64,000 nucleotides of DNA, taken from sequence record KX130864; one strand, written 5' to 3'. The DNA comes from Shigella phage SHBML-50-1. Of this stretch, positions 24,321 to 27,474 are shown one piece after another (position 1 is the stretch's first letter; every line of letters starts with the position of its first letter). The position numbers and the translations under genes are program-made. The notes under the pieces are model-generated. The model was not told the origin of the DNA. It searched no databases and saw nothing but the letters and a program-made list of their open reading frames with translations.

Positions 24321-24586
24321 TGTTCATCCTTTAGAGTTTGGTTTACAGCTCTATTATAAATCAATTCATCATTAAGCTCAGTCAAAGACATGTGGTACGT
24401 GGTTCTAACTTTATTTCCTTGCATCCAGTGCTTGACGTAAATGAAACCTTGCTCTACACATTTTTTAAAAATTCGTTCGTCTTTTTGAGCTCGAAATTCT
24501 GGATTGCATCTAAAAAATTGATTTACGTGACCGTAATCACGTGTAGTATTACCTTCATTTTCATAAATAGTGTGAACGACAAACAT
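24317..24586 (-). CDS. hypothetical protein (30.1)
   Basis: 89 aa ORF overlapping neighbouring genes. Confidence 0.6.
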   Translation of the reverse strand: MFVVHTIYENEGNTTRDYGHVNQFFRCNPEFRAQKDERIFKKCVEQGFIYVKHWMQGNKVRTTYHMSLTELNDELIYNRAVNQTLKDEQ

Positions 24587-25422
24587 TAGAATGCTCCTTG
24601 GAAAATATTATCACCACCAGTAGGTCTATTATACAAATACTCTATGCCACCAGGTTTAATATAGTTCCATGTCTGAAACGGATGCGTCTGATATGGATGA
24701 TATGGATTATAAGGATTAAATCCAGGAGTTCTCCAGGTAGTATTCCAACGAAAAGAATCGTTTTTAATCATCTTCTCGATTGCATCTTTTATAGCTTTTT
24801 CACTATCAAAACTTTCTTTATTTTCCTTCGATGGAAAAAGCTTATTCTCTACATCATTCCATGTATAAACTCGCTGTGCAGTTTTTGGAATACTGTCACG
24901 CTCCCCTCGAGCCATCCAATAAACAGGAACATTTAATATTTCACTCGCGTGATCGCAGTGGTGAGCGAGATCGTCAATATAACAAATTACGTTATATTTC
25001 TCTTTTGCCTTTTTGAACAGCTCTTCTTTTGAAGAATCATGACTACACATCAGTACTTCTGAGAAGGCACCAGGAAAAAGAGCATTCAAATTAAATTGAC
25101 GATTCAGCAGAGCGTCAATAGAATCACCCAATGCTGTAACAGCTACAAAATTATAATCTTCTTTTAATTTGTTAATTACACACAGGGCATCTTTATATGG
25201 AGACAAGTAACGAATAAAATCTGAACGATTATATTTTTCAATTAACTTGACACCAAGTTCTTCATCACAATTAAAGAGTTTACCAGGAGAAATAAATTTC
25301 TCATCTTGGATCATTTTTAAAATATGTTCTAACGGAAGATTATATTTCTGAGCAAAATAAGGAAGGCCTGATTGCCAGCTTAAACATACTCCATCAATAT
25401 CAGTTAAAATAGTAGGCTTCAT
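24586..25422 (-). CDS. hypothetical protein (30.2), possible HAD-like hydrolase
   Basis: 278 aa; N-terminal ILTDIDGVCLSW resembles HAD motif I and YIDDLAH resembles motif IV. Confidence 0.6.
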   Translation of the reverse strand: MKPTILTDIDGVCLSWQSGLPYFAQKYNLPLEHILKMIQDEKFISPGKLFNCDEELGVKLIEKYNRSDFIRYLSPYKDALCVINKLKEDYNFVAVTALGDSIDALLNRQFNLNALFPGAFSEVLMCSHDSSKEELFKKAKEKYNVICYIDDLAHHCDHASEILNVPVYWMARGERDSIPKTAQRVYTWNDVENKLFPSKENKESFDSEKAIKDAIEKMIKNDSFRWNTTWRTPGFNPYNPYHPYQTHPFQTWNYIKPGGIEYLYNRPTGGDNIFQGAF

Positions 25423-25883
25423 AGAGAGTCTCTTAATAGGTTTAACACATCAATAAATTCAGCTTCGGTTAGTATTGTATCATCTTTTGTTAGACCACTA
25501 GCCATGCTGTGCTTCAAAACTTTTCCTTTCGAGGCTTGTAATGCATCACGAAAGCCCTTGTTTTGAATCGCTGCTTCAAAATATGCATTTGTGTATAATT
25601 CTTTCCACGCCGGGGAGTATCTTGAAAACGGAACTCCAAGCCAGAAGAGGGTCCCACGGTCCTGAGCTCTAGCATAAGACCTTCCAGCTTGTTGAGCGGC
25701 AAGCCCGGATAACCCAAATATACGACGTTGTTGTTCAACGTTTTTCACCTTGCATCCTTGGAGGAATCCTTCAAGACCTCCAAATTGAATACCATCCATA
25801 ACGAAAGGCCATTGGGCGAAATTACTTAATGCACATGATGGCCACCTAAAATTACTTCTAATCTCTAACTCAGACATTTTCAA
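25419..25883 (-). CDS. NADAR/YbiA-like (DUF1768) protein (30.3)
   Basis: 154 aa; LSNFAQWPFVMDGIQF...E..LQG.K resembles the conserved YbiA/NADAR N-terminal motif. Confidence 0.6.
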   Translation of the reverse strand: MKMSELEIRSNFRWPSCALSNFAQWPFVMDGIQFGGLEGFLQGCKVKNVEQQRRIFGLSGLAAQQAGRSYARAQDRGTLFWLGVPFSRYSPAWKELYTNAYFEAAIQNKGFRDALQASKGKVLKHSMASGLTKDDTILTEAEFIDVLNLLRDSL

Positions 25884-26076
25884 TGCTTATAATTTCAACA
25901 TCAGCCCAATGACCATAGCAAGGAAGACGAAATTCAACTGGCCAGTTAGGGTCCTTTTCTAATATAATAGACTCAACTCGTGGTTCTTCATGTTCATCAG
26001 TATATGGATTTTTATCTGTTACTTTATATGTGACCTTAATGTACTGAATTCCAAAAATCTTATTAATTATATTCAT
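25870..26076 (-). CDS. hypothetical protein (30.4)
   Basis: 68 aa ORF in operon. Confidence 0.5.
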   Translation of the reverse strand: MNIINKIFGIQYIKVTYKVTDKNPYTDEHEEPRVESIILEKDPNWPVEFRLPCYGHWADVEIISIENV

Positions 26077-27031: not shown

Positions 27032-27364
27032 TTATTTTACTACTTTCCAATGCTGCATGTCAAGTTTACCAACTTTTTTCATCTTCTCAATTAAGCGTTC
27101 GGCACGTTGGCGAGCTGTAACATAATACCATTCACCTAATTCATTTTGTTCAATTTTTCCAACGATTACTGTATTCAATTCATAAATCCAACCAGTAAAG
27201 AAATTATGAACTTGAATTGTAAAGGTGAAATCTGTTCCCATACCTTCTGTTGTTTCTACTTCAATAATATCACCTTCAACTGCCATTAAGAACCACATAG
27301 TTTCATCATATTTACCATTGAAGCATTTAGTTTTAACTGTAGCGTTCAGATTAATCGTTTTCAT
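27032..27364 (-). CDS. hypothetical protein (30.8)
   Basis: 110 aa ORF; AGGAG SD; early promoter upstream. Confidence 0.55.
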   Translation of the reverse strand: MKTINLNATVKTKCFNGKYDETMWFLMAVEGDIIEVETTEGMGTDFTFTIQVHNFFTGWIYELNTVIVGKIEQNELGEWYYVTARQRAERLIEKMKKVGKLDMQHWKVVK

Positions 27365-27425: not shown

Positions 27426-27450
27426 TTATGCAATCTTTGGAAAATAAAAA

Positions 27451-27470
27451 AGGACTCCCGAAGGAGTCCT
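27451..27470 (-). terminator. terminator after 30.9
   Basis: aggactcc-cgaa-ggagtcct preceded on plus by an A-run. Confidence 0.65.
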
Positions 27471-27474
27471 CAAC

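Follow-up and report, generated by a model that had tools for sequence, protein, structure and literature searches.

Gene 30.3 of a T4-like Tequatrovirus is an orthologue of adfN and encodes a phage-clade NADAR protein of the type that reverses DarT1 guanine marks in T4

T2 and T4 are resistant to the DarTG1 system, and this resistance has been mapped to gene 30.3, which was renamed adfN (Johannesman et al., Nat Commun 2025, PMC11825919). Deletion of adfN abolishes plaquing of both T4 and T2 on DarTG1, and ectopic adfN rescues RB69, a phage that is naturally sensitive to this system (Johannesman et al. 2025, PMC11825919). The same work showed that purified AdfN removes ADP-ribose from DNA, that the E36A substitution abolishes this activity in vitro, that rescue in vivo by the E36A and K43A variants is only partial, and that AdfN does not counter the thymine-modifying DarTG2 (Johannesman et al. 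2025, PMC11825919). In a 2024 study from a second laboratory, the T4 phage NADAR was tested in vitro on ADP-ribosylated DNA and hydrolyzed the linkage to guanine but not that to thymine. According to a 2026 paper, the T4 enzyme that removes guanine-ADPr consists of the NADAR core alone; the summary table of that paper gives cytidine-ADPr reversal for the NADAR and YbiA-type families only. The literature has the T4 protein specific to guanine marks, to the exclusion of those on thymine and cytidine. In a T4 transposon screen, insertions in 30.3 were strongly depleted on DarTG1 (log2FC -7.25, adjusted p 0), and the gene was non-essential on plain K-12. T4 AdfN did not protect uninfected E. coli from the toxicity of DarT1, and its benefit to T5 and Bas25 was only weak, so the picture of a free-standing eraser is incomplete, and the authors postulated a T-even factor for full AdfN function. 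One detail of the literature concerns the protein itself: the methods of PMC11125620 describe the construct "E. coli T4 phage NADAR (gp30.3)" as residues 1-208, versus the 152 aa of T4 gp30.3. The extra length may come from tags, or the construct may derive from another homologue.

The window, by which we mean the whole stretch of 64,000 nucleotides that was analyzed, contains an uninterrupted minus-strand ORF at 25419..25883 that counts 154 aa from a TTG codon. In the T4 reference annotation, gene 30.3 has 459 nt and starts at an ATG that corresponds to window position 25877, which gives a product of 152 aa. The codons TTG AAA in front of this ATG fall within the 3' end of gene 30.4 and probably do not encode residues of gp30.3. 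The published numbering of E36 and K43 fits the ATG start only, which supports the 152-aa product. The preliminary description had given this ORF as a gene for a 154-aa protein; the ORF is real, but its start has to be moved to the ATG. The start codon of 30.3 lies within the end of 30.4, and this overlap, ATGTCTGA, suggests that the two genes are translationally coupled.

The ORFs of the window run from the ligase gene 30 through 30.1, 30.2, 30.3 and 30.4 to 30.8 in the same order as in the T4 annotation. Over the 2.7 kb around gene 30.3, many Tequatrovirus (T4-like) genomes match at 97-98% identity, best of all Kha5h and ACG-C40 (97.7%). Compared with T4, the DNA differs at 8 of 501 aligned positions, about 98% identity over gene 30.3, so the source phage is a close relative of T4 and not T4 itself. 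Homologues of gp30.3 are present in 1509 phage records, and an exhaustive HMM search returned 1454 representatives of 50%-identity clusters of the family at E<=1e-3. Because of these numbers and the matches to PF08010 and PHROG 652 described below, the ORF is not a chance ORF; it is the gene 30.3 (adfN) orthologue of a T4-like Tequatrovirus. In most database records gene 30.3 is labelled "hypothetical protein". The coordinates of the features discussed here are collected in Table 1.

Table 1. Positions of gene 30.3, its parts and its surroundings in the window
Feature	Position	Strand	Basis or remark
Gene 30.3 (adfN) CDS, phage-clade NADAR ADP-ribosylglycohydrolase	25419..25877	-	152 aa + stop; ORF, T4 annotation, T4 identity, PF08010, NADAR fold
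Extra codons TTG AAA, as counted in the preliminary description	25878..25883	-	Mechanical ORF start is TTG; T4 annotation uses ATG
Overlap ATGTCTGA, 30.3 start codon within end of 30.4	25870..25877	-	Sequence and comparison with T4
Overlap ATGA, 30.3 stop with 30.2 start	25419..25422	-	Sequence and comparison with T4
N-terminal NADAR motif block, residues 18-43	25749..25826	-	Sequence, conservation, YbiA alignment
E36 codon	25770-25772	-	Sequence
K43 codon	25749-25751	-	Sequence
H123 codon, last-beta-strand His marking the phage NADAR clade	25509..25511	-	Conservation
M125 codon (Ile in T4)	25503..25505	-	Protein alignment with T4
C-terminal helix, residues 138-151, intact	25425..25466	-	AlphaFold2 model
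Gene 30.2, predicted HAD-superfamily NT5C-like phosphatase with disordered tail	24586..25422	-	PHROG 420, E 1.3e-92
Gene 30.4, 68 aa, upstream neighbour	25870..26076	-	ORF; locus comparison
30.3' ORF, internal to 30.3 in another frame	25514..25738	-	Annotated in T4
Sigma-70-like promoter match, 11/12 (TTGACA-18-TAAAAT)	27034..27063	-	Upstream of 30.7
Strong terminator-like hairpin	27450..27471	-	Upstream of 30.8, inside the 30.9 ORF

Inside gene 30.3, T4 annotates an internally translated product, 30.3', whose counterpart matches Pfam DUF2883 (E 2.5e-52). The ATG that starts 30.3' in T4 reads ACG in the window, and a TTG then follows. We considered 30.3' as the functional product of the locus and set it aside as a doubtful gene; most T-even loci keep its 76-codon frame open, but RB69 and one further locus (L012) have a stop in it. 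A scan for promoters and terminators gave 22 sites where 20.1 were expected, which is the level of chance. The promoter match upstream of 30.7 and the hairpin upstream of 30.8 may bound an early transcription unit that contains adfN.

The preliminary description recognized a NADAR/YbiA-like domain in the product by its motif and staked this assignment on a direct match to a NADAR profile. The assignment is correct, and the yardstick would have rejected it wrongly. The protein is covered by the complete profile of Pfam PF08010 (Phage_30_3; positions 1-138 of 138, E 2.3e-70) and matches PHROG 652 (E 1.3e-51), a family of unassigned function whose profile has 296 positions, of which T4 gp30.3 covers 126-272 only. 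The Pfam NADAR family PF08719 gave no match at E<=10, and PF08010 and one noise match were all that Pfam returned. This is because Pfam keeps PF08010 as a separate family for the phage clade. A search of NCBIfam gave no match either, and phmmer of the protein against PDB sequences returned a noise match only, none significant. These negative results of the direct searches come from the splitting of families and not from an absence of homology.

Deeper comparisons all point to the same superfamily. A profile of nine gp30.3 sequences, searched against PDB sequences, placed E. coli YbiA (2b3w) first, with a weak E value of 0.058 and exactly over the motif region. The AlphaFold2 model made from the nine-member alignment (pLDDT 82, pTM 0.77) has the NADAR alpha+beta fold, with a helical core flanked by small beta-hairpins. 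Among the best 148 of the 1454 family representatives, which served as our sample for conservation, 20 cross-match PF08719 at E<=1e-3 (best 1.2e-6), and reciprocally several YbiA-like proteins carry precomputed PF08010 matches. In hhalign, the gp30.3 alignment was matched to 26 YbiA-type NADARs with 94.3% probability (E 9.6e-8, 101 columns). Taken together with the conservation of the motif residues, these results establish that the protein is a member of the NADAR superfamily and belongs to its phage gp30.3 clade (PF08010, PHROG 652). This agrees with de Souza and Aravind, who, as cited in later papers, placed the gp30.3 proteins in a "phage NADAR" family with a His in the last strand. Some family representatives of about 290 aa (P0023, P0025, P0026, P0038 and P0110) have two gp30.3-type NADAR domains in a row, partial or complete, and other domain partners in the sample of 148 are ASCH, DUF6939, an alpha/beta hydrolase and LRR.

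The motif reads, in the 152-aa numbering, S18-N19-F20-A21-Q22-W23-P24 ... D28-G29 ... E36-G37-F38-L39-Q40-G41-C42-K43. The motif quoted in the preliminary description is therefore present, but its "DG....E" spacing was miscounted, as six residues and not four separate G29 from E36. The E-x3-Q-x2-K element with its Glu and Lys, and the SNF that precedes it, are all found in the window protein. E36 is invariant in the 148 representatives, and S18, N19, Q40, K43 and H123 are conserved in at least 90% of them; F20 is present, but outside this set. The hhalign alignment pairs S18, N19 and F20 with S30, N31 and F32 of YbiA, E36 with E48, Q40 with Q52 and K43 with K55. The literature describes the residue in the last strand as His in phage NADARs, Glu in YbiA and Asp in DarG1. 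H123 is invariant in the nine-member alignment and lies in the strand 120-123 of the model. In the hhalign register, H126 of YbiA is the partner of H123, and the catalytic Glu of YbiA, E125, is that of K122. Published accounts take the phage His as the equivalent of this Glu; the register in this segment (residues 120-126, window 25500..25520) may be ambiguous by one residue.

The window protein is identical to T4 gp30.3 (NP_049816) at 151 of 152 positions. The sole difference is I125M, two residues from H123; most family members, and RB69 as well, have Met at this position. The comparison with RB69 is instructive. The gp30.3 in the RB69 record has 137 aa and is 96% identical over its length; a T inserted after nucleotide 410 of the gene causes a frameshift, and the last helix is lost. 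Truncation of gp30.3 lowers its activity (Johannesman et al. 2025, PMC11825919), and the one-base insertion that truncates the protein at 137 aa explains the DarTG1 sensitivity of RB69. In the window, the protein is full length, the helix of residues 138-151 is intact, and M125 is what most of the family has. From this, and from the single residue that separates the protein from that of T4, we infer that the window gene is very probably a functional adfN. An intact adfN predicts resistance to the guanine-modifying DarTG1, and this is useful for host-range prediction and for the annotation of phages for therapy. The function of gene 30.3 (AdfN) is already known, and in this respect the finding is not new. 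Mechanistically it adds nothing, but it adjoins the question why a T4-type enzyme works only in T-even infection.

The explanation that best fits the locus, and one in which we have high confidence, is that the window protein is a minimal, core-only NADAR ADP-ribosylglycohydrolase that reverses DarT1 guanine marks, an activity known for the T4 protein. In this mechanism, DarT1 of the host would ADP-ribosylate guanine in the phage DNA, and replication would be blocked. AdfN would bind the ADP-ribose moiety, with E36 and K43 contacting the ribose, by analogy with the PnNADAR-ADPr structure. The residue of the last strand, here H123 in a presumed role, would complete the catalytic center. The enzyme would then hydrolyze the N-glycosidic bond that joins ADP-ribose to the base, guanine would be restored, and the phage would be able to replicate in cells that carry DarTG1. 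The preliminary description had proposed an eraser of ADP-ribose marks that counters DarT toxins. For guanine and DarTG1 this has been published for T4 gp30.3 (AdfN), but the claim is too broad, as thymine-modifying DarTG2 is not countered.

Other substrates have to be weighed against this explanation. Iyer et al., writing before the experiments, can be counted in support of the idea that the main physiological targets are soluble products of ADP-ribose (immune signals or toxic by-products) or RNA that bears ADP-ribose, with the reversal of DarT1 marks as only one facet of the function. NADARs of all families remove guanine-ADPr from RNA as well, and the contig of a natural NADAR/HAD fusion protein, described below, carries an ADP-ribosylglycohydrolase, a second NADAR, RtcB and phosphatases. 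We nevertheless consider such a main role improbable, as the phenotype and the activity of T4 gp30.3 have been shown on DarT1-modified DNA only, and in the part of the DarTG1 Tn-seq table covered here the depletion on DarTG1 is limited to 30.3 and its upstream neighbours.

It could also be argued that the protein reverses or tunes ADP-ribosylation by the phage's own transferases Alt, ModA and ModB. The alt gene of the T4 reference shares the strand of 30.3 and is about 3 kb away from it, and Iyer et al. pointed out that T4-like NADARs are expressed early alongside ADP-ribosyltransferases. The NADARs that have been tested, however, cleave N-glycosidic base-ADPr bonds (guanine, and cytidine for some), and the phenotype of the adfN deletion depends on DarTG1, so that we regard this role as very unlikely. 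We give hardly any weight to the possibility that the protein is a housekeeping N-glycosidase that, like YbiA, destroys reactive intermediates of the riboflavin pathway. YbiA is indeed the top structural and profile match, but its Glu E125 faces K122 in hhalign and the clade has His in place of this Glu. Moreover, the hhalign match stops at residue 128, before the invariant C-terminal block of YbiA (Y132, W133, D135, G136, G137 and G139), the literature names DarG1-type NADARs as the closest relatives of the phage clade, and gene 30.3 is dispensable on K-12.

The T-even factor postulated for T4 AdfN might be encoded in the same translationally coupled string of genes. Within this string, gp30.4 is the best candidate, though a weak one, and we think that this proposal is more probably wrong than right by a wide measure. 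The gene overlaps the start of adfN. Its homologues occur, in the loci examined, in T-even-proper phages only, RB69 included, and always directly upstream of 30.3. In the T4 Tn-seq data, insertions in 30.4 were 3.5-fold depleted on DarTG1 (log2FC -1.79, adjusted p 0.014). It is for these reasons that gp30.4 stands out. The depletion is more simply read as polarity on adfN. No Pfam family was found for gp30.4.

The downstream neighbour, gp30.2, is predicted to be a catalytically complete HAD-superfamily phosphatase. Its family has D8 and D10 (motif I), K132, D150 and D151 without exception and T96 in at least 90% of cases, and the nearest solved structures, by both profile and fold, are 5'(3')-deoxyribonucleotidases (NT5C). 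The protein has no Pfam family and is called hypothetical in most databases. Its tail of about 80 aa is disordered and rich in Pro, Trp and Tyr. In 17 of 30 related viral loci, 30.2 is found immediately downstream of 30.3, down to 41% identity; in the more distant of these loci it is absent within 6 kb of gp30.3. There are also natural fusions, P0032 and P0040 (and also P0147 and P0149), that combine an N-terminal gp30.3-type NADAR with a C-terminal gp30.2/NT5C-type HAD domain, and the order of the domains is the order of the genes in T4. P0032 matches PHROG 652 (E 4.6e-40), PHROG 420 (E 1.4e-22) and Pfam NT5C (E 1.6e-16), and P0040 gives the same matches, more weakly. The link of gp30.2 to the fused proteins is made by the PHROG profile only, as phmmer of gp30.2 against them gave no match. 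Beside P0032 (locus L034, 5001-5993), its contig encodes ADP_ribosyl_GH, another NADAR, RtcB and LMWPc, along with a weak match to PTP-NADK, which suggests an ADP-ribose-processing or RNA-repair module.

We considered gp30.2 as the required T-even partner of AdfN and rejected it. For such a role spoke the ATGA shared with the adfN stop, the conserved gene order, the natural fusions and the complete NT5C-like HAD fold. In the T4 Tn-seq data, insertions in 30.2 were neutral on DarTG1 (log2FC -0.12, p 0.61, 71 sites), so gp30.2 is not a required helper, and the distant gp30.3 loci do without it. Since gp30.2 is dispensable on DarTG1, it is more likely that it serves a different ADP-ribose-related task.

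Several known systems can be compared with this locus. T-even phages have two further anti-DarTG factors, AdfM (the T4 tk.4 macrodomain) and AdfA (T4 61.2). They differ from the window protein in that AdfM is a macrodomain that acts against the thymine-modifying DarTG2, while AdfA binds the toxin and does not erase marks; by alignment with T4 coordinates, both genes would lie outside the window. AdfN(Bas32) and AdfN(Bas60) likewise represent phage-borne NADARs that counter DarTG1 by removal of guanine-ADPr. They belong to other NADAR clades and work without a phage context, whereas the T4 type needs T-even infection.

E. coli YbiA (PF08719; 2b3w) is the best structural and profile match and has the SNF...E..xQ..K pattern in common with the window protein. 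The two are only about 20% identical, and YbiA is a housekeeping N-glycosidase of riboflavin intermediates, with a Glu in the last strand and a conserved Gly/Asp-rich C-terminal block, both of which are missing from the window protein. The DarG1 NADAR antitoxin (BC4488 family; G. lovleyi 8bat, E. coli C7) has an Asp in the last strand where the window protein has a His, and with its N-terminal extension it reaches 219 aa, compared to the core-only 152 aa here. The gene for DarG1 adjoins darT, whereas 30.3 is flanked in the window by counterparts of T4 genes 30.2 and 30.4, and the T4 annotation of the corresponding region lists no darT. Unlike AdfN(T4), DarG1 also protects uninfected cells from the toxicity of DarT1. 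The match to AdfN(T4), gp30.3, is the closest: the length, the start and stop overlaps and the neighbouring genes are the same, and E36, K43 and H123 are all found in the window protein, as is the C-terminal helix. The substitution I125M is the one difference in the protein, and the phage that carries the gene is a relative of T4.
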